NCBI GenBank assembly: GCA_002070605.1
Contig: MWDO01000004.1
Location: 8,184 to 72,183, forward strand
Direction: 5' to 3'
Source: Spirochaetes bacterium ADurb.Bin133
GTDB taxonomy: Bacteria; Spirochaetota; GWE2-31-10; MWDO01
Length of the DNA stretch: 64,000 bases
A model generated the notes under the pieces. It worked only from the letters and a program-made list of their open reading frames with translations. It did no database searches and was not told the DNA's origin. Positions 7-61,039 of the stretch are shown here, one piece after another. A program made the position numbers and the translations under genes. Position 1 is the stretch's first letter; every line of letters begins with the position of its first letter.

Positions 7-2838
7 ATGAACTATGCCAACAGGGTAAAAGGGAATAGACGCGTCGGCGAGAAGGTTTTTATGCAAGGCGGGGTATGTTATAATAAAGCGGTGCCGGTCG
101 CAATGGCGGCTCTGACCGGCAAGGAGATAATCGTTCCGCCGGATCCGGGGCTTATGGGGGCTTTTGGAGTGGCGCTCGAAGCGAAAAAGCGTCTCGACAA
201 CAATCTTTTAGAGCCGGTCGAATTTGATCTCGACGCGCTTATTAATAGAGAGGTAACTTACGGTAAAAATTTCAAGTGCGCCGGCGGACAAGAGAAGTGC
301 GATATAGGCTGCGAAATTCTATCGATAATCATCGACGGCAAAACTTACGCATTTGGCGGCGCTTGCAATAAATATTACAATATTATCCATAAATTGAAAT
401 TTGACGAAGACAGATTAGATATAGTGTCGCGAAGGGAAAGACTGCTTTTCGGGAAATACGCTCCCGAATATCCCGTTTCAGAAAACAAGGTTATAGGTAT
501 AAACAGAAGTTTTTATACAAATACGTATTTTCCGCTATACTACAACTTTTTCAGCAAACTTGGTTTTAAAGTCATAGTATCGGAACATAGCGCAAAAGAG
601 GGGGAAGAGTCCCAACTATCTTCATTCTGTTATCCGATGCAGTTGGCTCACGGATTTTTCTGGGATCTCTTAGAAAAAAAGCCGGACTATATCTTTATGC
701 CGCACCTTGTTCAGATCGAGACGGACGGAGGATGCGACAATTGTTCTAAGCAAATCGGTTACCGTAAAGCGTGCGTATTCAATCAAGGCGAACCCTTTAC
801 GATGAAGGCGACCTTTAAGGATAAGATAGGTAATACCGAGATGCTTATACCGTTACTCGATTTTTCAAGAGGGATCGATAGGGAGAAGAAAGTTTTTATT
901 CGGCTTGCCGTCGACAAACTCGGGCGTAAAGCGTCGGACGCCGCCGCCGCTTTCGACGAAGCTCTAAAACTGCAAAGAGAGTTTTTTGCGGAAATGAAAA
1001 AAATCGGGGCGGATTTGCTTACCGAACTCGAGAAGAATCCCGATAAAATCGGAGTCGTTCTTTTTGGAAGGTCGTATAACGCTTTTACTGAAAAAGCGAA
1101 TCTCGGAATTCCCAGAAAATTTACGTCGCGCGGTATCGAGATATTTCCTTACGATATACTAAATTTTGAAGGGGAGACCTTCGAGCCGTTTATGCATTGG
1201 GGTATGGGGGAGACGATTCTCAAAGCCGTTCAGATAGTAAAAAGACACCCGCAATTGTTTGGAACTTTTATCACGAATTTCAGTTGCGGACCGGATTCTT
1301 TTATGGTCGAGCTTTTTAGAGAAGAGCTTGAAGGCAAGCCGTCGCTAACTTTGGAGCTTGACAGTCATAGCGCCGACGCCGGAGTCAATACCCGAATCGA
1401 AGCGTTCTTGGACGTCGTCAAATATTATAGAGAACTACAAAAAAACAATAAATTGGAAGAAAAAGAGAAGAGCGATTTCAAGCCGGCTTGGATAGAAGGG
1501 GAAGGGTTTAAAGCTAAGATTCATCTATCCGACGGAAAAACCGTTATATCCGCCAGATCCGATAAATACACCTTTATGTTTCCTTCTTTGTCGCGATACG
1601 TTATGGGACCTGCGAACGAATACCTCAATAAAATCGGGATCAAAGGGCGGCTCGTCCCGCCGACTACGATGGAGAGCATCAAACTTGGTCGTTCGCAGTC
1701 GTCGAGTAAAGAGTGTTTGCCGTTAGCTATAATGATGGGCAATATGATGACCTACATCCGGGATCATCACAAAAAGGGAGAGCCGTTGGTGCTTCTGCAC
1801 GCCACGGACACCTCCCCATGCCGATTGGAGCAGTATTACAACGGATTTAATAACTTTATCAAACGCAACAAGATAGAGAATTTTGCGGTTTTTAGACTCG
1901 ACGACCGAAAAGGTTACGCCGGATTTGGAACGGGACTTTTGTTGACGCTTTTTAAATCCTTTGTTCTCGGCGACGTTTTTGAGACTATAAAGAACGGCAT
2001 AATCGTTCTCGCCGAAGACAAAGAGTACGGCTTGAAAGTTATGGAGGAGGAGTTTGCCAAAATTACCGACAATTTCGGCGGGCGGGAAAAAATGTCTCTC
2101 AATAAACGCCTGAAACTATCGGCAAAACGAATCTCGGAGATCCCCAGAAAAATGGAGATAGACGACGCAAAATTCATAACTATAACGGGCGAAATATACG
2201 TCCGAAACGATCACTTTGCAAGAAGAAATATCGAGGGTTTTCTCGCCGAAAAGGGATTTATCGCCCATATTGTGCCGTTTATGGAAGTCCTGTTTTATAT
2301 CGATTATTGTCTTATGAACGATCTCACCGAAATAAACGTCAGTCCGTTTAAGAAGATCTACTTCTTCTTCAAGTCGTTTTTTCAACAAAAAATCGATAAA
2401 CAGATCAAAGATGTTTTTGCGAATTGCGGATTTTACAAACCGACTTATATAAATATTAAGGAGATAATAAATTCGTCGAGATTGATAGTAAGTCCCTATT
2501 TGAGAGGCGAAGTGCCGATAACGACCGGAGCGGCGTTGAAATATATCCTTAACGACGCGTGCGGAGTTATATCGATAGGACCTTTTGCGTGTCTTCCGTC
2601 TCGAATGGTAGAAAGTTTGTTAAAAACCAATATGAATCTTGTTCATAAGATCGCGCTTTCGCGTAAATATCCGCTTTACGAAGAGCTTGATAAAATGGGC
2701 GTTCGCAATCTGCCGTTTTTGCCGATAGAATCGGACGGCAACCCGTTTACGCAAGTTACGCAAGCGCAGATCGAAGTATTCTGTTTGCAAGCGGATAGAC
2801 TTCATAACAAGATGGTCGAAGCAAAGAAAAGGATATAA
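7..2838 (+). CDS. C-terminal ~940 aa of a giant activase-dehydratase fusion protein (BadF/BadG/BcrA/BcrD ATPase end followed by a 2-hydroxyglutaryl-CoA dehydratase D-component-like domain). The 5' end lies outside the window. Paralogue of 56668..60780.
   Basis: The ORF is open to the window edge. Its N-terminal visible stretch (GGVCYNKAVPVAMAALTGKEIIVPPDPGLMGAFGVALEA) is the characteristic end of an acetate/sugar-kinase-fold activase domain. The remainder aligns by eye with the C-terminal two-thirds of the 1370-aa protein at 56668..60780; the shared motifs include FCxP, GYxxxxxP and YDGxxxP. Confidence 0.75.
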   Translation: MNYANRVKGNRRVGEKVFMQGGVCYNKAVPVAMAALTGKEIIVPPDPGLMGAFGVALEAKKRLDNNLLEPVEFDLDALINREVTYGKNFKCAGGQEKCDIGCEILSIIIDGKTYAFGGACNKYYNIIHKLKFDEDRLDIVSRRERLLFGKYAPEYPVSENKVIGINRSFYTNTYFPLYYNFFSKLGFKVIVSEHSAKEGEESQLSSFCYPMQLAHGFFWDLLEKKPDYIFMPHLVQIETDGGCDNCSKQIGYRKACVFNQGEPFTMKATFKDKIGNTEMLIPLLDFSRGIDREKKVFIRLAVDKLGRKASDAAAAFDEALKLQREFFAEMKKIGADLLTELEKNPDKIGVVLFGRSYNAFTEKANLGIPRKFTSRGIEIFPYDILNFEGETFEPFMHWGMGETILKAVQIVKRHPQLFGTFITNFSCGPDSFMVELFREELEGKPSLTLELDSHSADAGVNTRIEAFLDVVKYYRELQKNNKLEEKEKSDFKPAWIEGEGFKAKIHLSDGKTVISARSDKYTFMFPSLSRYVMGPANEYLNKIGIKGRLVPPTTMESIKLGRSQSSSKECLPLAIMMGNMMTYIRDHHKKGEPLVLLHATDTSPCRLEQYYNGFNNFIKRNKIENFAVFRLDDRKGYAGFGTGLLLTLFKSFVLGDVFETIKNGIIVLAEDKEYGLKVMEEEFAKITDNFGGREKMSLNKRLKLSAKRISEIPRKMEIDDAKFITITGEIYVRNDHFARRNIEGFLAEKGFIAHIVPFMEVLFYIDYCLMNDLTEINVSPFKKIYFFFKSFFQQKIDKQIKDVFANCGFYKPTYINIKEIINSSRLIVSPYLRGEVPITTGAALKYILNDACGVISIGPFACLPSRMVESLLKTNMNLVHKIALSRKYPLYEELDKMGVRNLPFLPIESDGNPFTQVTQAQIEVFCLQADRLHNKMVEAKKRI

Positions 2839-2846
2839 ATTTGAGT

Positions 2847-2875
2847 CCTCAAAAAAGTCTTCAACTTTTTTGAGG
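2847..2875. terminator. Bidirectional intrinsic-terminator-like hairpin between convergent genes
   Basis: A perfect 12-bp inverted repeat, CCTCAAAAAAGT-cttca-ACTTTTTTGAGG, lies between the stop of the + gene (2838) and the stop of the - gene (2878). It is A/T-rich on both sides. Confidence 0.5.
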
Positions 2876-2877
2876 AA

Positions 2878-4758
2878 CTATTTGTATTTCTCTATAATAA
2901 CGTTTCGCTTCTTTTTCATCGTATTTGTAAGTTCGACGCCGACCTCAAAATCGTTTGGCAATAACGAAAAGTCTTTTATCAATTCGTGAAATAAAAATCC
3001 CCTCGAACTATTAACCTTGCTTTTTATCTCCTTTTTATAGAAATCGTTCACTTCGGCTTGTTTTAGTATTTCCGATAATATTCCCGGCGCTTTTTCATCA
3101 AATTTAAATACTTTTTTCAAATTATCTACGTTTGGAACTATCAGAGCGGATAGCCCCTCTTTGTCCTGTCCGCTTACCAGCGCGTATTTGATATATAGCG
3201 AATCTTCCAGCGCCATCTCTATCGGCTCCGGTTCGACGTTCTCGCCGTTAGCAAGCACAATTGTGTCTTTTGCTCGTCCGGTAAATACCAGATTGCCCGT
3301 CGCCGTTTCGCATACAAGATCGCCGGTATTAAAATACCCGTCTTTATCAAACGCTTTTTTAGTCGCTTCGTCGTTTTTATAGTATCCCATAAATATCTGG
3401 TCGCCTTTTACAAACAAAATTCCGGTCTCCCCAATTTTACATATTGTTCCGGTTTGCTCGTTTACGATTTTATAGGAAGTTCGAGGCGTAATTTTGCCGA
3501 TCGAATACTTGACGTCGTCGTCGCTTCGTATCGTTACTATAACGGCGGTCTCCGTAGAACCGTAGCCGTCTATTACGTCAAATCCGACTATTTCAAAAAA
3601 ATCGTCGCATTCGTTTTGAAGTTTTCCGCCGCCCGACGTAATCGTTCTGATATGTCCGCCGGTTTTAGCTCTGATTTTCGAATAAACTAAAGACGAGCCG
3701 AGTTTATGAAGAGGAAGATTTATCATCATTTTAAAAAAGGCGGAAATGTTTTCTGAAAATCCCGGTTTTTTAAACCTAATATCCTTTTTTCTGAGGACTC
3801 TTCGGGCTTTTATATAGCTTAAGCTTTTATTATAGAAAAAATGGAATATTTTACCTTTGCCGCTATCCTCTATCCCTTTGATAATCCCGTCCATACTTTT
3901 CTTCCAAACAAGCGGCGCTCCCGGTATAAGATGCGGCTTTTCTTTAATCATATCCTCTCGCATAGCGTAAATTGAAGATAAAATAAGCGTTACGCCGTGA
4001 ATAATCGCCATAAACTCAAAAAATCTCTCGCCGACGTGCCATATCGGAAGAATACTCATCCAGCGGTCGTCGTCGTAAGCGGTAACTCTCCCCGGGGTTT
4101 CGGTCGGCGAATAGGTTAGATTTTTATGCGAGAGCATTACTCCTTTTGGGGCGCCGGTTGTTCCGGACGTGTATATTATCGAACATAGATCGTCGGGTTT
4201 TACTTTTGAAAATCTTTCGATAAAAAAAGCGTCGTCGCCGTTCCTGATCTTCTTCCCGAGAGCGCAAACTTCGTCAAAAGTTATCTCGTTAGGTTTTAGC
4301 GTTATTCCGTCCGCGTTAAATATTATTCTTTTAAGGTTATTCCCGACGCCGTTTTTATTAAGTTTATCGTTTCCGTCTCTATTATGAACGGCGATAAAAT
4401 CTGCGTCGGCGTGATTTAAGATATATTTCAGTTCGCCGTCGGGGCAATTGAGCCCTCGAGGAACGTCCGTTCCTCCCAAGCCCATTGAGGCGATAACGGC
4501 TATCATCCACTCGACGCAATTGTCGGATATAATCGCCATTCGTTTGCCGTCGAGTTTCAAATCAATCAATCCTTGAGCAAAATCGCAGACCTTTTCGTAA
4601 AATTCGCCGTATTTTATAGAATTAAACTTACCCGACTTGTCTTTAAATCTGAAAATAATATGCTCGGGGTATTTTTTTACCGCTTCGTAAAAAAGCTGAA
4701 CGAGATTTTTATCCATTCTGTTAGAATACTCAAGTTTCATATAATCCTCCATGATCAA
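2878..4758 (-). CDS. Long-chain fatty-acid--CoA ligase (AMP-dependent synthetase/ligase family)
   Basis: Carries the AMP-binding signature IYTSGTTGAPKGV and the downstream GYGSTE and TGDL motifs. Length 626 aa. Confidence 0.85.
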   Translation of the reverse strand: MIMEDYMKLEYSNRMDKNLVQLFYEAVKKYPEHIIFRFKDKSGKFNSIKYGEFYEKVCDFAQGLIDLKLDGKRMAIISDNCVEWMIAVIASMGLGGTDVPRGLNCPDGELKYILNHADADFIAVHNRDGNDKLNKNGVGNNLKRIIFNADGITLKPNEITFDEVCALGKKIRNGDDAFFIERFSKVKPDDLCSIIYTSGTTGAPKGVMLSHKNLTYSPTETPGRVTAYDDDRWMSILPIWHVGERFFEFMAIIHGVTLILSSIYAMREDMIKEKPHLIPGAPLVWKKSMDGIIKGIEDSGKGKIFHFFYNKSLSYIKARRVLRKKDIRFKKPGFSENISAFFKMMINLPLHKLGSSLVYSKIRAKTGGHIRTITSGGGKLQNECDDFFEIVGFDVIDGYGSTETAVIVTIRSDDDVKYSIGKITPRTSYKIVNEQTGTICKIGETGILFVKGDQIFMGYYKNDEATKKAFDKDGYFNTGDLVCETATGNLVFTGRAKDTIVLANGENVEPEPIEMALEDSLYIKYALVSGQDKEGLSALIVPNVDNLKKVFKFDEKAPGILSEILKQAEVNDFYKKEIKSKVNSSRGFLFHELIKDFSLLPNDFEVGVELTNTMKKKRNVIIEKYK

Positions 4759-4828
4759 AATTATAACATAATTAAATAAGTTATGCTAATTGATTTTATT
4801 AACTTATATGTTATTATTTTATTTTTAA

Positions 4829-4970
4829 GCCCGTCGGTCTTTTGGGGTGGGGAAAATAAATTCGACACATATGCGTCGCTGTGTTTCATCTTATAGTTTG
4901 ACGCATATGTGTCAATTTGAAGGAACTGTCTCAAGAGTTCTCATTCCTCCCTAAAAAACCGGCGAGGGTA
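4829..4970. repeat. Copy of the MITE-like palindrome-bearing intergenic element
   Basis: Left end GCCCGTCGGTCTTTTGGGG, units TTCGACACATATGCGTCG and TTTGACGCATATGTGTCAA, right end CCCTAAAAAACCGGCGAGGG. Confidence 0.6.
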
Positions 4971-5051
4971 CATTTTTAAAATAAAAATTGTTGCAATAAT
5001 TTTTCATTTGTAATATATTAATTGTAACAATCTAAATTTTGGAGAAATAAT

Positions 5052-5825: not shown

Positions 5826-5849
5826 TATATTGCGGAATATAAATTAATT

Positions 5850-6365
5850 TTAGGTAGAGTGGACGTATTTGGGATAATTTTCGATTACGAGGGCGTATAA
5901 TAGCCGTTTTTGAGCGGCGATACTCAACAGTTGTGTCATTTTACCCAAAAAGTCTTTTTCCACTTTATCAATCCTTAATTTCTTACCAACAAGCTCAAGA
6001 AATCCTTCCAACCCGTATTTCATAACGCCGTTATAAAAAAACAGTATGATATCGCGGACTATCGAAGCTATACAGAATTCGTTATACAAGGAATGCCATT
6101 TTTTTATTTTTAAATAGTCCGCTTCGCTAATTCTAAGGTATTTATCCAGCCTTTTATCGTCGGAGTTATCTATAACGGCGTATTCGGAGCGGCAATTTCC
6201 GATTATTCTTTTCATCTTTAGGACTTTTTTGTCAATAAGGCGAAACATAGTTTCAAACAGTTTGCTGAACGTATTAATTTTGAACTCTTTTAGTAGAAAA
6301 TCTATGACATTGGTATTCATAGATTCCGATACTATAAAATGGAACAAATGTTTTTTGTTTTTCAT
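5850..6365 (-). CDS. Hypothetical protein
   Basis: A 171-codon ORF with protein-like composition. No recognisable motif. Confidence 0.4.
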   Translation of the reverse strand: MKNKKHLFHFIVSESMNTNVIDFLLKEFKINTFSKLFETMFRLIDKKVLKMKRIIGNCRSEYAVIDNSDDKRLDKYLRISEADYLKIKKWHSLYNEFCIASIVRDIILFFYNGVMKYGLEGFLELVGKKLRIDKVEKDFLGKMTQLLSIAAQKRLLYALVIENYPKYVHST

Positions 6366-6445
6366 AAAATTTTCTCCTTTTTCTTTTATATATATAACAA
6401 TTAAAAGTAGAAAACGTTATACAAAAACTTGTATAAATTTTTAGA

Positions 6446-6527
6446 AAATAACAAATAATTTACTAATCAAAAATATTTTTCTCATATGTGTCAATTTTCT
6501 CTTCTACTACCAACAAACCGTTGGGGG
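6446..6527. repeat. Partial copy of the MITE-like element: internal conserved block plus one CATATGTGTCAA unit and a degenerate right end
   Basis: AATAATTTACTAATCAAAAATATTTTTCTCATATGTGTCAATTTT matches the conserved internal block seen at 12166, 16296 and 60881. It ends CAAACCGTTGGGGG. Confidence 0.5.
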
Positions 6528-6614
6528 TAAAAATATTAATTTAGTTTTTGATTGATTTTTTTTGAAGGTTATTGTAATTTACAGGATGTTAAAGTAGTAC
6601 ATGAGGTGGAAGTT

Positions 6615-11155: not shown

Positions 11156-11160
11156 ATGGG

Positions 11161-11318
11161 GGCTAGGGCGGGCGCTTTTGATCGTCCTGAACCAAGCCGA
11201 AGGACGACGCATATGATGTTCAAGGAGGGAATTGACACATATGCGCCGCGCTACGCCTTGATGAAAAAATTGACACATATGTAACAAATATTTTTTATTC
11301 CCCAAAAAAACCGACGGA
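11161..11318. repeat. MITE-like element copy with three CATATG units and a clear right end TTCCCCAAAAAAACCGACGG. It forms the left flank of the PIN cassette.
   Basis: Contains GACGCATATG and two TTGACACATATG units. The 44-bp block at 11238..11281 is identical to 12203..12246. Confidence 0.6.
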
Positions 11319-11502
11319 TTACGTCTGTTTTTTACTTTTTTATTGAATAAATAATATGTTTTTGTTAGTATATAACAGTTTATGTAAAATGGTAAAAATA
11401 TTTTAAAAGATGAGATTATAAGTATAATAAAGGAGTCGTTATGCTCGCAAAAAACCTTTTCAATGTAATCTCCAAGATAAAGGCGCAATTGGAGCGCAAT
11501 TT

Positions 11503-11949
11503 ATGAGTAAAATTAAAATTTATCTGGATAATTGCTGTTTTAACAGACCTTACGACGACCAGAAACAACATAAAATTTTTCTTGAAACGGAAGCTAAACT
11601 TTTTATACAGCAGAGAATTAAAAATGGGGAATTTGACCTTATCTGGAGTTTTATTCTTGATTATGAAAATTCTGCAAATCCTGATATTGAAGCAAAAAAA
11701 GCTATTCAATTATGGGAAAATATTGCAATTAAATCAATTTTATTGTCTCCTGAATTACAAAGTAATGCAAAAATTTTCAATAATAAAGGTTTTGGAATAA
11801 AAGATTCGCTACATATAGCCTGCGCTATCGAATCAGGAGCAAAATATTTTTTAACAACTGATAAGGGAATATTGAATAAAAAACATTTTATCAGTAAAAT
11901 AACAATATTAAATCCTGTGGATTTTATAGTATTGGAGGAAAACTTATGA
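11503..11949 (+). CDS. PIN-domain protein (VapC-like putative toxin ribonuclease)
   Basis: Carries a conserved N-terminal acidic residue in IYLDNCCF and the typical later motif DSLHIACAIESGAKYFLTTDKGI. Low GC relative to its neighbours. Confidence 0.75.
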   Translation: MSKIKIYLDNCCFNRPYDDQKQHKIFLETEAKLFIQQRIKNGEFDLIWSFILDYENSANPDIEAKKAIQLWENIAIKSILLSPELQSNAKIFNNKGFGIKDSLHIACAIESGAKYFLTTDKGILNKKHFISKITILNPVDFIVLEENL

Positions 11950-12155
11950 AAACAGATGCAATAATAAAACAAGTTGCTTTTAAGGCAATATTTGAAAAAC
12001 TTGATATTGTTGAAGCTGAAAGGTTTATAGCATTGATCAAAAGGGATAATTTTGATTATACAGAGTGGAGAAAAAATTTATGGGAAGATTTAACTATTGA
12101 AGAGTTGTCTAAAAATGCGATGGATTATTGCGATAAAAGGCAGGGATCCTGTTAG
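11946..12155 (+). CDS. Small protein translationally coupled to the PIN gene (ATGA overlap). Putative cognate partner or antitoxin.
   Basis: A 69-aa ORF with a 4-nt overlap. Its stop lies inside the degenerate left end of the next repeat element. Confidence 0.4.
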   Translation: MKTDAIIKQVAFKAIFEKLDIVEAERFIALIKRDNFDYTEWRKNLWEDLTIEELSKNAMDYCDKRQGSC

Positions 12156-12299
12156 TTTTTTAGGGAATAAAAAAATAATTTACTAATTTAAAATATTTGT
12201 TTCATATGCGCCGCGCTACGCCTTGATGAAAAAATTGACACATATGCGTCAAAAAAAATCGCCCATATGCGTCAAATTTCCAAAAAACCGACGGCGCGA
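12148..12299. repeat. MITE-like element copy forming the right flank of the PIN cassette
   Basis: Degenerate left end CCTGTTAGTTTTTTAGGG, a conserved internal block, three CATATG units, and right end TTCCAAAAAACCGACGGCGCG. Confidence 0.6.
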
Positions 12300-16197: not shown

Positions 16198-16271
16198 AAA
16201 TCATCCTGAAACATCTTTTTTTTTGTAATAGCATTATTTAATAAGAAATAAAAGGAATTTATCAAAAATTT

Positions 16272-16434
16272 GCGCGCCCCGTCGGTTTTTTGGGGGATAA
16301 AAAATAATTTGCTAGTTAAAAATATTTGTTTCATATGTGTCAATTTTAATAGGCGCCTCAATCCGACGCATATGTGTCAATTTATCCTTAGCTCCATATG
16401 TGTCAATTTTTCTCCCGCCCCAAAAAACCGACGG
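16272..16434. mobile_element. Complete MITE-like element with terminal inverted repeats and three CATATGTGTCAA units
   Basis: Left end GCGCGCCCCGTCGGTTTTTTGGGGG and right end CCCGCCCCAAAAAACCGACGG are inverted repeats of each other. The conserved internal block GATAAAAAATAATTTGCTAGTTAAAAATATTTGTTTCATATGTGTCAATTTT is present. Confidence 0.65.
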
Positions 16435-16447
16435 AGTATAAAATTTG

Positions 16448-17236
16448 CTAAATATCCGCTTTTACTTTCCACGCTTTTTGTATCGGGGTAAGTTTTCCTT
16501 GAGACCATAATAACAATAAATTTTTCAAGTCCTCGTTTTTAAAAGTTATTGATTCTCCTTTTTTTAATACGGAAATTTTATCTTCTATTGCTAAATAACT
16601 TTTCGGAATTAGGTCTCTAAACTCTTTGCTCTCGACAATGTCTTGCAACGGCTTGGCGGGAATCATTTTTTCATTATAGGCTATTTTATAAAATTCCTGC
16701 GAGATACCGTTGCCCTTGGTAATAGAATCTACAGCGACCGTTTTTAATTTAAGATTATTGATAAGGGCAAGACGATATTTATACTCTTCCGCCGATATAT
16801 ACTCTCCGTACGAGTGAAAGGATTGGTTTTTGGAAAAAACAAAACCGTTTGTTACGAGGCTTCCGTCTTTATTTATATTTGAAGTTCCCTCTTTAGAAAA
16901 TATTTTTGATTTATCCGCAACGTCGGTATTATTTACAGTTTTTGTTAAGGTTTTAGCTATCGTCGTCGCAGTCGAGATTATTTCGGAGGTCTCTTTAATA
17001 TCCGACAAATCTTTTTGGATTTTTTCAACGTCTATTATTTCATTTTTTATCTTTTTTAAGTCGTTATCTTTCAATACTTTGGACTCGATTACTTTATTTG
17101 GAAAATTTATAGAGTAGTTGTCGCCTTTGTTTAATCCGAACCAATTGAAAAAATATATTCCGACAATAAAAATAATCGACAATAAAACCGCGCCTAAAAG
17201 AGAAAGTATAATAAGAATAAAACGCTTTGATATCAT
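16448..17236 (-). CDS. Hypothetical membrane-anchored protein
   Basis: N-terminal transmembrane helix ILIILSLLGAVLLSIIFIVGIYFF. K/E-rich. Confidence 0.45.
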   Translation of the reverse strand: MISKRFILIILSLLGAVLLSIIFIVGIYFFNWFGLNKGDNYSINFPNKVIESKVLKDNDLKKIKNEIIDVEKIQKDLSDIKETSEIISTATTIAKTLTKTVNNTDVADKSKIFSKEGTSNINKDGSLVTNGFVFSKNQSFHSYGEYISAEEYKYRLALINNLKLKTVAVDSITKGNGISQEFYKIAYNEKMIPAKPLQDIVESKEFRDLIPKSYLAIEDKISVLKKGESITFKNEDLKNLLLLWSQGKLTPIQKAWKVKADI

Positions 17237-21310: not shown

Positions 21311-21392
21311 GGCGCCCCGTCGGTTATTTGGGGATTGAGAAATATTTGTTCCATATGCGTCAAATTTCTCTTCCCTAAAAAACCGCCGGGGT
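21311..21392. mobile_element. Short MITE-like element with inverted-repeat ends and a single CCATATGCGTCAA unit
   Basis: GGCGCCCCGTCGGTTATTTGGGG ... CCCTAAAAAACCGCCGGGGT. Confidence 0.6.
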
Positions 21393-21421
21393 AAAACAAA
21401 TGAGACTGTTTGAAAAGGTAG

Positions 21422-24894: not shown

Positions 24895-25068
24895 ACGCCG
24901 CGCCCCCGGTTTTTTGCGGTAAAAAAATGACACATATGCGACTCCTTTCGTATAGGGACGTCCGGTCGTATGAGTTCCTGTGGGGGAAAAATTGACGCAT
25001 ATGTGTCATTATGGAAATCGACGCATATGAGCTGCATATATAACGCGCCGCGCGTCGATAAAAAGGGC
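24895..25068. repeat. MITE-like element copy with three CATATG units and degenerate ends
   Basis: Left end ACGCCGCGCCCCCGGTTTTTTGCGG, followed by TGACACATATGCGAC, TTGACGCATATGTGTCA and TCGACGCATATGAGC. Confidence 0.55.
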
Positions 25069-25085
25069 TTGATATAATATCGGCG

Positions 25086-28275: not shown

Positions 28276-28533
28276 TTAGATATCATTATATACATTTCTT
28301 CGATGACCAATTTTATAAATACATACAATTTGATTAATTTCATCGACGGTATAAATAACTCTGTAATCTCCAATTCTTATTCTATAACCGTCGGCATTAA
28401 CTAATTTTGTAGAAGTAGCCGGAATCGGATTCTCGGATAAATTTCCAATCTTCTCAATTATCTTCTTCAATTGATCTTTAGGAATGGTTCTGGTTTCTTT
28501 ATCAATTTTATTGTCAAATATTACCTCATACAT
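28276..28533 (-). CDS. Type II toxin, RelE/ParE family
   Basis: C-terminal hallmark GYRIRIGDYRVIYTVDEINQIVCIYKIGHRRNVY. 85 aa. Confidence 0.8.
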   Translation of the reverse strand: MYEVIFDNKIDKETRTIPKDQLKKIIEKIGNLSENPIPATSTKLVNADGYRIRIGDYRVIYTVDEINQIVCIYKIGHRRNVYNDI

Positions 28534-34469: not shown

Positions 34470-34579
34470 CGGCGCCCGTCGGTTTTTTGGGAGAGGGGAA
34501 TTGACACATATGACGTTAAAGATAAAATTGACACATATGGAGCAAATATTGTTATCCCCCAAAAACCGACGGGGCGCCC
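34470..34579. mobile_element. Prototype ~110-bp MITE-like element with perfect terminal inverted repeats and two TTGACACATATG units
   Basis: CGGCGCCCGTCGGTTTTTTGGG ... CCCCCAAAAACCGACGGGGCGCC. The ends are reverse complements over about 20 bp. Confidence 0.7.
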
Positions 34580-35945: not shown

Positions 35946-36767
35946 ATGGCGCAAAATTCTTTAGGGCAAAAAACAACATATGTTTCAAATTACGATCCTT
36001 CCGTATTGTACGCTATTCGCAGGTCTGAGAGTAGAAAAAAAAACGGCGTCGACGAATCCGGTTTTTATGGATACGACAGGTGGAATTGTTACGAATTTAG
36101 TTTTTTAAATAACAACGGCAAACCGATTCAAAAAGTTTTGCGTTTTGCCTACGGTTCCGATTCTCCAAATATTGTGGAATCAAAATCTCTAAAACTTTAT
36201 CTGTACGGATTTTCTGCGACGCGTTTTTTTGACGAAAAAGACGTGATTTTGACAATTAAGACCGATTTGGAAAATATTATACTTTCGCCGATCGAATACG
36301 TCGATTTATACGATCACAACTATTCTTATTCGATTGAAAAAATTAGTAATAAAAATCTTTTAGACAATCTTGAAGTAGAGGTAAACGGTTATAAACCGGA
36401 CAGATCCCTTTTGAAAACGGAGAAAATTGATAGTTTTAAAAAAATTGAACGATTTTCTTTTTTATTTAAGACTAATTGCCCGGTAACAGGTCAACCGGAT
36501 TGGGCTACCGTCCATATAAAATATATATCAAATAATATAATAGAGGATTCGTCGCTATTAAAATATATCGTCTCTTTCCGCAATCATGCCGATTATCACG
36601 AATCCTGTTGCGAAAAAATTTATTCGGACGTCTACGCGATCTCTTCTCCCCGATACCTTCTTGTCGAGTGTTTTTTTACTCGAAGAGGCGGAATAGATAT
36701 AAATCCGATGAGAGTCAATCAACCGATAGAGAGTCTTGAGTTGGAAAAACGTTATTGGAGACAGTAA
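35946..36767 (+). CDS. queF: NADPH-dependent 7-cyano-7-deazaguanine reductase QueF, bimodular type II (YqcD-like)
   Basis: QueF motif ESKSLKLYL and active-site Cys region FKTNCPVTGQPDW. Also LLKYIVSFRNHADYHESCCEKIY and TRRGGIDINP, which align with E. coli QueF from memory. Confidence 0.9.
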   Translation: MAQNSLGQKTTYVSNYDPSVLYAIRRSESRKKNGVDESGFYGYDRWNCYEFSFLNNNGKPIQKVLRFAYGSDSPNIVESKSLKLYLYGFSATRFFDEKDVILTIKTDLENIILSPIEYVDLYDHNYSYSIEKISNKNLLDNLEVEVNGYKPDRSLLKTEKIDSFKKIERFSFLFKTNCPVTGQPDWATVHIKYISNNIIEDSSLLKYIVSFRNHADYHESCCEKIYSDVYAISSPRYLLVECFFTRRGGIDINPMRVNQPIESLELEKRYWRQ

Positions 36768-39277: not shown

Positions 39278-39600
39278 AATTATCAATAAATCAAAAACAA
39301 AGATTAACTTCGATAATGTTGCAATATGCGATTATTTTCGGATACGGTCTTTTCGAGGAAAATATGGAAATTCTTATAGAATCTAACAGATTAATAGACG
39401 TAATAAACGACTCCCACCCTAACGACGACGAAGTGTCAAAATTGTTATCAATCGTTAGGCAAAGACAGCTTCTGTTTGGGAGCGGTATAGTTTCGACGGA
39501 CTCCTACGTCCACAAAGAGTGCGAACAACTAATTAGAGCGCTTAAAAATTTAAATAAACCAAAGCTTTATATCGGCGACTTAAAATACAAAAGACGTTAG
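39274..39600 (+). CDS. Hypothetical protein, start overlapping the HK stop (ATGA)
   Basis: A 108-codon ORF translationally coupled to the kinase gene. Confidence 0.35.
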   Translation: MKLSINQKQRLTSIMLQYAIIFGYGLFEENMEILIESNRLIDVINDSHPNDDEVSKLLSIVRQRQLLFGSGIVSTDSYVHKECEQLIRALKNLNKPKLYIGDLKYKRR

Positions 39601-39603
39601 AGA

Positions 39604-39732
39604 GCCCGCCGGTTTTTTTGGGGGAGGAGAAATTGACGCATATGCGACGGCGTCGATAACGCGCGACAATTGTTGCATAAAAATTCGACGCATATGTGTC
39701 AATTGTTTTTTTATCCCCAAAAAACCGACGGC
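39604..39732. mobile_element. MITE-like element with inverted-repeat ends and two palindrome units
   Basis: GCCCGCCGGTTTTTTTGGGGG ... TCCCCAAAAAACCGACGGC, with TTGACGCATATGCGAC and TTCGACGCATATGTGTCAA inside. Confidence 0.65.
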
Positions 39733-39756
39733 TTACGGCGCTAAATTAAAATATTC

Positions 39757-39787
39757 TTGACAAAAATATTTTAATTTGTAGTATAAT
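39757..39787 (+). promoter_or_regulatory. Sigma-70-like promoter (TTGACA-N19-TATAAT) for the OmpA-like gene, directly abutting the MITE-like element
   Basis: TTGACA at 39757 and TATAAT at 39782. The 19-nt spacer is longer than optimal. Confidence 0.35.
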
Positions 39788-39867
39788 ACGTTTTAACGGA
39801 GAATATATGAATAACATTTCATTTGATTTATCGTTAGGGATCAAATTATAATTAAATCGAGCGAATT

Positions 39868-41403
39868 ATGGATGATAAAAAACAGTATTTATCTTACGAA
39901 CCGTTAGACTCAAAACTTGAAAACTTGGAAAATTTAGAACTCACTCAATTAAAAAAACTTCAACGGGCGTTAAAGTATGAAAGTTTAAATGCGGAAATTG
40001 TCAGCGAAGTTTTACCTCAATCAATCTCGATGAGAAATCAAGTTGATTCTATGCTTCCCATATCTTTAGTAGATTCGACGGAGGAAGCGATAAAGTATTC
40101 GGTAAAAAACGATTCTGAAGTTTTAAGTTCCGCGCTCTCTCCGATACTTGGACCTATGATTACAAAGTCGGTTTCGACTCTATTTAAAGAGTTTTTAGAA
40201 TCTATAAATAATAAAATAGAAAAGAGCGTATCTTTTCAAGGACTGAGGTGGAGACTCGAAGCTAAAAAAACCGGCAAGAGTTACGCCGAGATCTTATTTA
40301 TGCATACGCTCCTTTATCGCGTAGAACATATTTTTTTAATTCACAAAAAAACCGGATTGCTGATCAATGAGGTCAAATCTATCGAATCGACTATCGTCGA
40401 CTCCGACTTGGTAACGTCGATGCTGGTCGCTATTAAAGATTTTGTTAAGGAATCTCTAAGAATTTCTAAAGAAAAAGACGTCGACGCGCTTGAAGTCGGA
40501 GAATACAATATATGGCTGGAATCGACGTCCGAGTTAACGCTTGCTTGCGTAATAAAAGGAATTCCTAATGTTGAATTACGAAAAAAAATGAGAGAAACAA
40601 TTTCGATAATTCGTTATAAATACGATACTGAACTGGAAAAGTTTGAAGGAAATATGGAGCCTTTCAAAACTTCTTCGATCTATCTGGAAGCCTGCTTATT
40701 ATCTGAAAATAAAACTTTGAAAAAAAAGAAATTCCCGATATTTGCCGTTGTTTTTATTTTAATTATTTTGTCGATATGCGGTTTCTTGGCGTCGATTCCT
40801 ATAGCGCGTAACGTAAGATTTCGCAAGTTTGTTAACGCTCTCGACGCGCTGGACGGAACCAGAGTAACCAGAATTGTTAATAAAAATTTTAAGAAGCATA
40901 TTTATGGAATCAGAGTTACTCAATCTGAAGACCTTGAAGAACTTCAGAAAAAATATTTATTAGACGGTTCAAAAATAGTATATCATTGGGAATCGTTAAC
41001 CGGTACGGATAATACGGAAATTGAAAAAATTAAAGAGAGTATCGAGACTCTATACGTCAACTTCAGCGCGAATTCTGAAGAGTTAAATCCCGATCAAATA
41101 AAAGCGCTGAACAATATGATTGTGGATTTTAAGAAGCTTAAAAAACTTGCCGTAAATCAAAAAAAGAAATTTAAAATAAACGTTGAAGCGCGATCGATGA
41201 GTATAGGGAATGCAAATTTGGAACTACTTACAAGCGAAAGGAGAGCAAATACCGTTGTGAATTTCTTATTATCAAACGGATTTTTACGGGAAGACTGCGA
41301 GATTTTTGCCCTCGGTTCCTCCAAACCAATCTCAACCGGCAATATAGAGAAAGACTCTATACTAAACAGAAGCGTAATATTCAGCGTTATTATGGAAGAT
41401 TAA
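39868..41403 (+). CDS. OmpA/MotB-domain protein with a central transmembrane helix
   Basis: C-terminal OmpA-like peptidoglycan-binding motif (LSNGFL.. / TSERRANTVVNFL). Transmembrane segment FPIFAVVFILIILSICGFLASI. Confidence 0.55.
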   Translation: MDDKKQYLSYEPLDSKLENLENLELTQLKKLQRALKYESLNAEIVSEVLPQSISMRNQVDSMLPISLVDSTEEAIKYSVKNDSEVLSSALSPILGPMITKSVSTLFKEFLESINNKIEKSVSFQGLRWRLEAKKTGKSYAEILFMHTLLYRVEHIFLIHKKTGLLINEVKSIESTIVDSDLVTSMLVAIKDFVKESLRISKEKDVDALEVGEYNIWLESTSELTLACVIKGIPNVELRKKMRETISIIRYKYDTELEKFEGNMEPFKTSSIYLEACLLSENKTLKKKKFPIFAVVFILIILSICGFLASIPIARNVRFRKFVNALDALDGTRVTRIVNKNFKKHIYGIRVTQSEDLEELQKKYLLDGSKIVYHWESLTGTDNTEIEKIKESIETLYVNFSANSEELNPDQIKALNNMIVDFKKLKKLAVNQKKKFKINVEARSMSIGNANLELLTSERRANTVVNFLLSNGFLREDCEIFALGSSKPISTGNIEKDSILNRSVIFSVIMED

Positions 41404-48254: not shown

Positions 48255-48465
48255 GACGCATATGCGTCAGACCAAAACCGCATATGCGTCAAATTACTCT
48301 TAACATCATATGTGTCAATATTTCTTTCTACGACAATTGTCGCGCGTTATCGACCCGGCGCGTATGTCAAATTCTCTCGGGGAGCATGGCGTCTCATATG
48401 TGTCAATTTTTGTCGAGGAGCGACGCGGCGTCGCATATGCGTTGATTTATTTTGACACATATGCG
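48255..48465. repeat. Array of six 18-bp palindrome units (CATATG-centred, TTGAC/GTCAA arms) with variable spacers
   Basis: CATATG centres lie at 48259, 48281, 48307, 48396, 48434 and 48458. Sub-repeat TCGAGGAGCGACGCG-N-CATATG. Confidence 0.65.
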
Positions 48466-48576
48466 ACGATTTTTTCATCGGGGAGCGACGGGGCGCAAAA
48501 TACCGATTAAAAAGATAGAAAACAATTCAATTTAAGTGTATAATATAGGTTAAATAAAAAAAAGCAAGGCGTATAG

Positions 48577-52828: not shown

Positions 52829-52904
52829 ATTTTCGGAATTTACCGCTCTCCGCTATCTTTATTTTTAAAAAAAGATCGACAAGCGCTTGAAATTATGTCG
52901 CAGT

Positions 52905-53075
52905 CTGTCGGCGTTTTGGGGCTAAAAATTTTTGACACATATGCGTCGCATAATAATTCGACGCATATGTGTCAATTTCTTCATCGAGAAGCGGCGCGTA
53001 TCATATGTGTCAATTTCTCATCGAGGAGCGACGCGTATCATATGTGTCAAATTCTATCAAGACGCGTCGAGGCGC
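52905..53075. repeat. Array of four to five palindrome units with left end TGTCGGCGTTTTGGGG
   Basis: CATATG centres lie at 52939, 52964, 53002 and 53039. Tandem sub-unit TCATCGAGGAGCGACGCGTATCATATGTGTCAATTTC. Confidence 0.65.
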
Positions 53076-60780: not shown

Positions 60781-60861
60781 AAGAATTTCCTTAACAAAAA
60801 GATGTATTTATAAATATTTATATTTAATTACTATATAAATGTCAAATTAATATTATTTGTA

Positions 60862-60930
60862 TCCCGTCGGGTTTTTTGGGAATTAAAAATATTTGTTTCA
60901 TATGTGTCATTTTATTTGACACATATGCGA
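60862..60930. repeat. Truncated MITE-like element (left end plus conserved block plus two units) with no right inverted repeat
   Basis: TCCCGTCGGGTTTTTTGGG-AATTAAAAATATTTGTTTCATATGTGTCATTTTATTTGACACATATGCGAC. Confidence 0.55.
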
Positions 60931-61039
60931 CTGTTTCGACATGCGGGTCAAGGGCGTTTCGCCCTTGCGCTGTCCGAGTAGGACAAGATCTTGACTTTTT
61001 ATAAAATTTAACTTATATTTAGAATAAGAGGTAAATAAT

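Follow-up and report, generated by a model that had tools for sequence, protein, structure and literature searches.

Does the short intergenic segment at positions 34470-34579 belong to a family of mobile elements and, if so, from what did the family derive and what moves it? In the original prediction the segment, with its inverted ends and internal palindromic units, was read as the prototype of a MITE-like, non-autonomous transposable element that recurs throughout the window (by which we mean the whole stretch of DNA analysed, 64,000 nt). We arrive at a related answer: most probably the repeats are a MITE family with a parent element that carries a gene for a predicted ribbon-helix-helix (RHH) DNA-binding protein.

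Repeat loci in the 64-kb window

The segment at 34470-34579 was found to be as described, and the enrichment of its motifs was confirmed. The core TTGACACATATG (with at most one mismatch) has 31 matches in the window versus 0.09 expected from dinucleotide-preserving shuffles of the window, the end motif CCGTCGGTTTTTTGGG (with at most two mismatches) has 12 matches versus 0.05 expected, and the two-unit pattern occurs eight times versus 0 expected. The core matches fall between long ORFs, with the single exception of a match at 35977 (one mismatch) situated within an ORF. There are 12 family loci within the 64 kb (Table 1); they occupy ~2.5 kb, or 3.9% of the window, and the family is present in 12 of the 14 intergenic regions with a length of at least 150 nt.

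Table 1. Copies of the repeat family in the window, in order of position (TIR, terminal inverted repeat)
Feature	Coordinates	Strand	Description
Short element	4827..4971		Three cores, one of them a full 18-bp dyad; possible 8-bp duplication ATTTTTAA
Copy of full-length type	5826..6540		ORF171 gene, A block upstream of the gene, one core (6483); both TIRs eroded, the left lost and the right degenerate (CCAACAAACCGTTGGGGG)
ORF171	5850..6365	-	171-aa orphan, predicted single-chain tandem ribbon-helix-helix DNA-binding protein
Truncated copy	11156..11322		Two cores; right TIR only (CCCAAAAAAACCGACGGATTAC)
Copy	12144..12299		Degenerate left TIR, A block, one dyad and one core, right TIR
Short element, 166 bp	16274..16439		Three CATATGTGTCAA cores and A block; exact 9-bp target-site duplication AAAATTTGC at 16265-16273 and 16440-16448
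Minimal element, ~84 bp	21312..21395		One core; ACAAATG (7 bp) at both flanks
Degenerate copy	24896..25075		Left TIR-like end, three cores (ATGACA variants), no right TIR
Prototype short element, 107 bp	34471..34577		Bounds drawn after considering tips and flanking duplication; left TIR GGCGCCCGTCGGTTTTTTGGG, right TIR CCCCCAAAAACCGACGGGGCGC; TTGACACATATG cores at 34501 and 34528; flanks CCTATAAC / CCTATTAT, a degenerate 8-bp duplication (6/8)
Short element	39601..39736		Two inverted cores
Array	48262..48500		Four cores in GC-rich units of ~40-60 nt; no recognisable TIRs
Degenerate left end, then four cores	52900..53075		Three of the cores in tandem units with a 37-38-nt period
Copy	60859..60990		Left TIR (GTATCCCGTCGGGTTTTTTGGG), A-block remnant, two cores; no right end

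The loci listed in the original prediction are real members of the family, but the array at 48262-48500 had been missed, and what had been taken for a partial copy at 6446 is the region upstream of the 171-aa gene of a full-length element. Some details of the described architecture had to be corrected as well. The ends of the prototype, described as exact reverse complements, differ by two single-base length differences (CCC versus CCCC and T6 versus T5), seen as bulges in the fold. The internal block said to be common to all loci is present in its long form (the A block) in only four window copies (6438, 12158, 16287 and 60854), while the window copies without the long block keep just its last ~15 nt.

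The 12-nt core CATATGTGTCAA makes up two-thirds of an 18-bp dyad, TTGACACATATGTGTCAA, and every 12-mer core contains one complete dyad half-site, ATGTGTCAA. The 18-bp dyad TTGACRCATATGYGTCAA occurs at window positions 4898, 12235 and 24992. As a separate observation, the window contains 33 CATATG hexamers, 31 of them within the 2.5 kb of elements and two in the other 61.5 kb; the latter number compares with 6.6 expected under a Markov-1 model, and in the rest of the window this NdeI-type hexamer is possibly avoided.

A JGI contig from an anaerobic-digester metagenome (3300010365, Ga0116251_10000470) matches the window at 100% identity. Its gene content is of the housekeeping type only (PFOR, aconitase, FlgG, CheX, OmpA-like proteins and HgdC-like activators); no transposase, RAYT or integrase was found among the window genes, and Rfam and tRNA scans of the window gave no match. 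Two genes that adjoin, or sit between, repeat-bearing intergenic regions code for a toxin-antitoxin-like PIN-domain protein (11503-11949, in region 11443-11949) and for a homolog of the ParE toxin (28276-28533, detected by Pfam on the identical locus L001).

Family anatomy and marks of transposition

Further copies of the family were sought in a sample of related DNA (875 kb) from anaerobic-digester Spirochaetota metagenomes. Scanning for the pattern CATATGYGTCAA-N10-40-CATATGYGTCAA gave at least 115 metagenome loci (811 kb), and 59 non-redundant bounded copies were obtained. Since the metagenome loci were selected for two adjacent cores, the proportions of copy types in the sample, which also includes redundant strains, are biased. 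Viral contigs and plasmid and phage collections produced no match to the family. A scan of genome collections with the 17-mer end motif hit chance singletons in unrelated phyla only, none with a core, and a literature search for the motif returned unrelated primer sequences only and no paper mentioning the motif in bacteria.

In the window and the metagenome loci there are 82 pairs of ends facing each other, 70 of which enclose at least one core. Element sizes fall into two groups, 98-320 bp (most copies) and 700-1020 bp. The TIRs bounding the 59 non-redundant copies are ~22 bp long, 5'-GTAAYCCGTCRGTTTTTTGGGG, with the consensus 5'-G(T/C)(A/G)NYCCGTC(A/G)GTTTTTTGGGG. If the short copies are aligned by their ends, the left part consists of a 5-nt tip, CCGTC(A/G)G, T6, GGGG and a AATAAAAAATAT-TTGTT spacer; the right part consists of CATATGTGTCAA, variable units, CCCC, A6, C(T/C)GACGG and a 5-nt tip. 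The copies hold from one to many 12-nt cores. The nearest core lies ~18 nt inward of one end and ~10 nt inward of the other, in the same absolute orientation, and in the aligned short copies the core is conserved to the same degree as the TIRs, unlike the internal sequence beside it.

The largest number of units was seen in locus L089 (82-1127), with 22 tandem copies of a ~47-nt unit, ATGTAGCTC-CATATGTGTCAA-TTTTTCATCAAGG-CGCGACGCGGCGC; such long arrays have shorter counterparts in the window at 48.3 and 52.9 kb. A CRISPR-like reading of the arrays was rejected because the units are repeated entire, with no unique spacers. Long arrays of the ~47-nt unit were also observed in L163, L187, L121, L190 and L153 (4070-4620); usually the long arrays stop just upstream of a sigma70-like promoter, and often one or both TIRs are absent. 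In L163 (60-230) a version of the core with a 33-nt period (CATATGCGTCAA) is situated within a coding region on the minus strand, where it specifies the 11-residue repeat STTTSTIDAYG of a probable secreted protein; it might have arisen there by chance or been exapted.

Target-site duplications were sought around the 59 non-redundant bounded copies, with a control in which left and right flanks from different copies were paired. Exact flanking repeats of at least 8 bp were found in 15 of the 59 copies (1.2% in the control) and those of at least 9 bp in nine (0.4% in the control). The modal duplication length is 8-9 bp, as in L176 (AAAATAGCC / GTAACCTGTCAG...CTGACGGATTAC / AAAATAGCC), and 33 of the 59 copies have no flanking duplication of 6 bp or longer. 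Insertion of IS630/Tc1 elements leads to a TA duplication and insertion of IS200/IS605 elements to none; thus, both transposase types suggested in the original prediction are excluded by duplications of 8-9 bp.

An empty site was sought as well, and a clean filled/empty pair was identified in two near-identical strains. The 153-bp element at L121 661-813 is absent in L144, the flanks are 97-99% identical, and the 9-bp target CCTTAAGTA is duplicated in L121 with one mismatch (CCTTAAGTA/CCTTAAATA). The unit number also differs at shared sites: L156 and L151 differ by 63 nt, and L128 and L146 by 266 nt between repeated units.

The window element at 39.6 kb is missing from two strain contigs, L002 and L003, which have 12 nt instead. 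The downstream flank there is a diverged allele, with no clean duplication, and we did not count this absence as a clean empty site because the haplotype has diverged. When window positions 39540-41403 are compared with positions 1-900 of the two contigs, similarity stops exactly at the element, and divergence climbs over the last 60 nt of the gene upstream of it, which suggests a recombination boundary at the repeat. The OmpA-like gene 3' of this element is a diverged allele in the two strains (511 aa versus 497 aa).

The longer element and its ORF171 gene

Window positions 5830-6500 have counterparts with 86-89% nucleotide identity at 16 or more other loci, whose ends are the same and whose flanks are unrelated. 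Alignment of 15 of these copies together with their flanks reveals a discrete element of 0.7-1.0 kb. It begins with the left end and ~30 nt, followed by a 171-codon ORF on the opposite strand (ORF171, the single gene that the TIRs enclose), the A block upstream of it, one to five cores and the right end. In the short copies (e.g. 16274-16439) GGGG-GATAAAAAATAATTT is joined straight to GCTAGTTAAAAATATTTGTTTCATATG, the junction being a deletion between two ATAATTT microhomologies with removal of the ORF. Comparison of the aligned copies shows the short ones to be internal-deletion derivatives of the 0.7-1.0-kb element with the same ends.

The reading of the family as MITEs is supported: the proposal of a non-autonomous transposable element agrees with the additional copies, the target-site duplications, the filled/empty pair and the longer parent with the same ends. 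The structural features that define a MITE are present, a known transposase-bearing partner excepted. A cognate transposase was sought, and the parent was found to encode the RHH gene instead; neither the 875 kb sampled nor the window yielded a transposase gene with these ends on either side. No other long repeat is abundant in the sample; a pair of paralogous chemoreceptor genes was the one further repeat detected.

Apart from host genes and paralogous chemoreceptors, the search for a transposase with the same ends yielded one IS110-family element; it is an invader of the repeat and was rejected as the mobiliser. This element (L153 ~2650-4070; ORF 2684-3844 on the minus strand; Pfam Transposase_20, E 9e-22) sits inside a repeat unit, splitting the core between CAT and ATG. 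A ~420-bp IS110 deletion derivative with the same termini (TATGGTAAAAGTCAACG...CTTTTACCTTAGCATCAT) is located at the same core position in L127 (~730-1150) and is absent from the strain contig L179. Given the identical position in L153 and L127, the IS110-family element appears to use the 12-mer as a specific target.

ORF171 has no match in Pfam, NCBIfam and PDB sequence searches. At E <= 0.001, 100 homologs were found, all of them 'hypothetical proteins' with 76-100% identity from this Spirochaetota lineage; the homologs listed are from Spirochaetota MAGs only, and 'Spirochaetes bacterium ADurb.Bin133' accounts for at least 10 locus tags. These source names put the host among digester Spirochaetota. 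Only 15 relatives turned up when 1.84 billion representatives were searched with a profile. One representative, P0106 (4344 aa, 14 matched stretches), is perhaps a gene call that wrongly spans several repeats. Several homologs with 42-47% identity (L192 5860-6510 and L193 5880-6510) come from a second, more AT-rich species (ENA ERZ2931789). They share a conserved leader of ~110 nt, including ATTGTTATATATAT, that is also present in the window copy; one of them has a TIR-like tip, GTAACTCGTCAGTTTT, and no 12-mer units were found at the ORF171 homologs of this species.

All 13 complete ORF171 copies in the sample are intact, with 171 codons. The median dN/dS is 0.127 at a median dS of 0.47, which indicates that ORF171 is functional and that its copies are old; the gene is under purifying selection, and its intact paralogs number in the dozens. 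Many insertions are old, since the prototype copy is identical across five strain contigs, one of them 3.5% diverged overall, and one ORF171 copy is fixed in many samples and in three NCBI MAGs. With respect to present-day activity of the family, then, the copies are old (dS ~0.47), many have no detectable duplication, and some are fixed across strains.

The distant homolog P0113 matches Pfam RHH_3 with 24.4 bits (cutoff 21.6; E 2.8e-5), weaker RHH matches were observed in P0110 and P0115, and weak matches fall at the N-terminus and near residue 70 of the distant homologs. The hhalign comparison of ORF171 to CopG gave a probability of 18%. An AlphaFold model built from a shallow alignment was unusable (pLDDT 48); distant homologs were added for the final model (pLDDT 75, pTM 0.68), in which the diverse alignment produced two beta-alpha-alpha modules. 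The predicted structure has the arrangement characteristic of the RHH fold, beta-alpha-alpha with paired beta-strands as a DNA-reading ribbon. In a Foldseek search against PDB, TraY chains ranked at the top, at a level that is not significant (E ~0.8). From the Pfam matches of the distant homologs and the modelled modules we conclude that ORF171 is a predicted single-chain tandem RHH DNA-binding protein, TraY-like and with no transposase fold.

TraY of the F-plasmid relaxosome, VirC2, AvtR and single-chain Arc are single-chain tandem RHH proteins. ORF171 is similar to them in predicted fold only; the identity is 8-12%, with no detectable sequence similarity. Unlike the TraY group, it has ~45 extra C-terminal helical residues and is encoded in a transposon-like cassette, with no conjugation locus.

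Mobilisation, rival readings and related systems

We propose that the elements would be inserted via cuts staggered by 8-9 bp, made by a DDE-type transposase acting in trans, and that the internal units would grow and shrink by recombination or slippage between repeats, thus producing the variation in unit number and the long arrays. By analogy in the ends and in the duplication length, the transposase could be an IS66-like enzyme, an assignment that we regard as tentative and on balance doubtful. The IRs of IS66 elements are 20-30 bp long and start with GTAAGCG, and the direct repeats are 8 bp long (PMC11946415); the IR of ISPsk01, a member of the IS66 family, is GTAAGCGTCCGG (PMC12888890). 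The family tips are GTAAY, GTATC or GCGCC, then CCGTCRG, and make a partial match to GTAAGCGTCCGG, in which ~8 of the first 12 bases agree with the tips GTAAYCCGTCRG; the 8-bp repeats are likewise close to the 8-9 bp observed here. Unlike IS66, however, the elements have no tnpA, tnpB or tnpC (TnpC being the DDE transposase), and ORF171 did not match the IS66 accessory models of NCBIfam and Pfam.

The RHH proteins (omega, MetJ, CopG, TraY) typically read short direct or inverted repeats. The core nearest to the ORF171 gene overlaps a promoter-like site, TTGACA-N17-TTTAAT. We think the chances evenly divided that ORF171 binds the 12-mer, with one pseudo-dimer per ATGTGTCAA half-site, and would thereby regulate its own promoter and perhaps assist in assembling the ends for transposition; we infer the binding from co-location and the predicted fold. 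If ORF171 does bind the 12-mer, the element would be a natural transposon spreading a regulator together with its binding sites through the genome, and perhaps one encoding only the specificity factor for its own mobilisation. A further extension, which we consider rather unlikely, is that of a minimal transposon: a TraY-like tandem-RHH protein seated on the subterminal 12-mers would draw to the TIRs a nuclease or transposase encoded by the host or by a distant single-copy gene. Specificity would then come from the element, catalysis would be outsourced, and the hundreds of binding sites scattered beside promoters would also form a genome-wide RHH network.

Alternatively, the ORF171 element might be autonomous. 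The tandem-RHH protein would then be the mobility factor, either as a novel catalyst or in the manner of TraY, conferring specificity by binding to the subterminal 12-mers and bringing in a nuclease or transposase of the host, and the short copies would be strictly non-autonomous derivatives. The intactness of the only gene between the TIRs in every complete copy (dN/dS 0.13) fits a cis-acting protein over dead cargo; Y61, Y83 and K87 are invariant across the distant homologs, with H90 and R103 at 90% or more; and TraY and VirC2, nearest to ORF171 in fold, act as accessory proteins that bind beside a DNA-processing site. The fixed subterminal distances of the cores from both ends would agree with this reading, but are explained equally well by common descent. 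We hold it to be improbable: no catalytic fold, conserved acidic triad or HUH motif was found in ORF171 and its homologs, 171 residues are fewer than in any cut-and-paste transposase known to us, and the ORF171 copies are old and diverged, with no recent amplification.

The repeats might also be dispersed operators of a host or ORF171-type regulator, kept by selection, with mobility ancient and now irrelevant; arrays and single cores would make a regulon-wide network of binding sites beside promoters. The contrast in conservation between the 12-mer and the internal sequence next to it is in line with this reading, as are the promoters just downstream of the arrays, the occupancy of 12 of the 14 large intergenic regions (with none between convergent genes) and the 100% conservation of the 34.5-kb copy in the strain that is 3.5% diverged overall. 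Still, that the sites arrived by transposition follows from the empty site, the TIRs and the target-site duplications; no shared function unites the neighbouring genes, and the elements show no orientation bias with respect to them (10/17 versus 12/18). As a separate explanation, operators are distinctly improbable; they complement the MITE explanation and do not replace it. An outward promoter (TTGACA-N17-TTTTAT, through the nearer end into the next gene) was also considered, and was rejected on the same absence of orientation bias.

Folding of the elements, proposed as a check in the original prediction, did give long hairpins, with z-scores from -5.4 to -7.6 that inverted repeats trivially produce, but no compensatory covariation was found between the arms. 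At the tip positions, the arms match each other no more frequently than shuffled pairs do. The sole arm-correlated position is the A/G of CCGTC(A/G)G (72% versus 47%), which marks two subfamilies. A selected hairpin with compensatory covariation at the ends was rejected on the tip test; the ends therefore behave like two copies of a recognised sequence and not like a selected stem. That the family consists of structured repeats of the REP/BIME or BOX type, dispersed through recombination or a Y1 (RAYT-type) transposase and working as RNA or ssDNA hairpins that stabilise or terminate mRNA, is very improbable and largely refuted by the duplications and the missing covariation: the hairpins, the intergenic location and the modular structure with variable unit numbers, as in BOX and BIME, would suit it, but Y1 transposases do not make 8-9-bp duplications, neither the window nor the surroundings of the elements contain a RAYT/Y1 gene, and there is neither an Rfam match nor a T-tract after the stem.

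The family, read as MITEs with an RHH-gene parent, is similar to the Correia/NEMIS elements of Neisseria and the RUP elements of S. pneumoniae, which are short, non-coding, intergenic and abundant, and have TIRs and target-site duplications. Common to bacterial MITEs are also polymorphism between strains and derivation from a longer element by internal deletion; the size here is ~80-320 bp. Correia and RUP elements give TA duplications, in contrast to the 8-9 bp observed here, and differ from the family in that its interior has a hyper-conserved 12-mer in variable copy number and its longest member an RHH gene. The BOX (S. pneumoniae), BIME (enterobacteria) and MIRU-VNTR (mycobacteria) sequences are modular interspersed repeats that resemble the family in their variable units and in strain-variable arrays of 40-60-nt units at many intergenic sites; they lack classical TIRs and 8-9-bp duplications, whereas the arrays described here are part of a transposon with TIRs or descend from one.

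The form with the ORF is comparable to a mobile insertion cassette (MIC). In MICs, such as MIC231 of Bacillus cereus, IS-type inverted repeats surround a passenger gene as they do here, and MICs are mobilised in trans. Unlike in MICs, the passenger here codes for a small predicted DNA-binding protein that purifying selection has preserved in dozens of diverged copies, and the putative binding sites of this protein lie within the same element. The 'transporter' IS tIS66 (PMC12888890) likewise has a passenger gene between IS-type inverted repeats; across these two kinds of element the passenger takes the place of a transposase or accompanies one.

A new MITE family in an uncultured spirochaete is by itself unsurprising, because MITE families are common. 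What is likely to be new is a MITE/MIC family whose coding member has a predicted RHH gene along with the likely binding sites. It is unusual that the sole coding member carries such a small gene, held under purifying selection in dozens of old copies, that an internal 12-nt motif is conserved like the ends and can be expanded into long arrays, and that a second mobile element, of the IS110 family, appears to target this 12-mer. The family also offers VNTR-like markers for strain typing, and it fragments the metagenome assemblies of its lineage: the contigs of NCBI MAGs stop dozens of times within an ORF171 homolog and leave a 'partial' protein, from which it follows that the repeat family breaks these assemblies.
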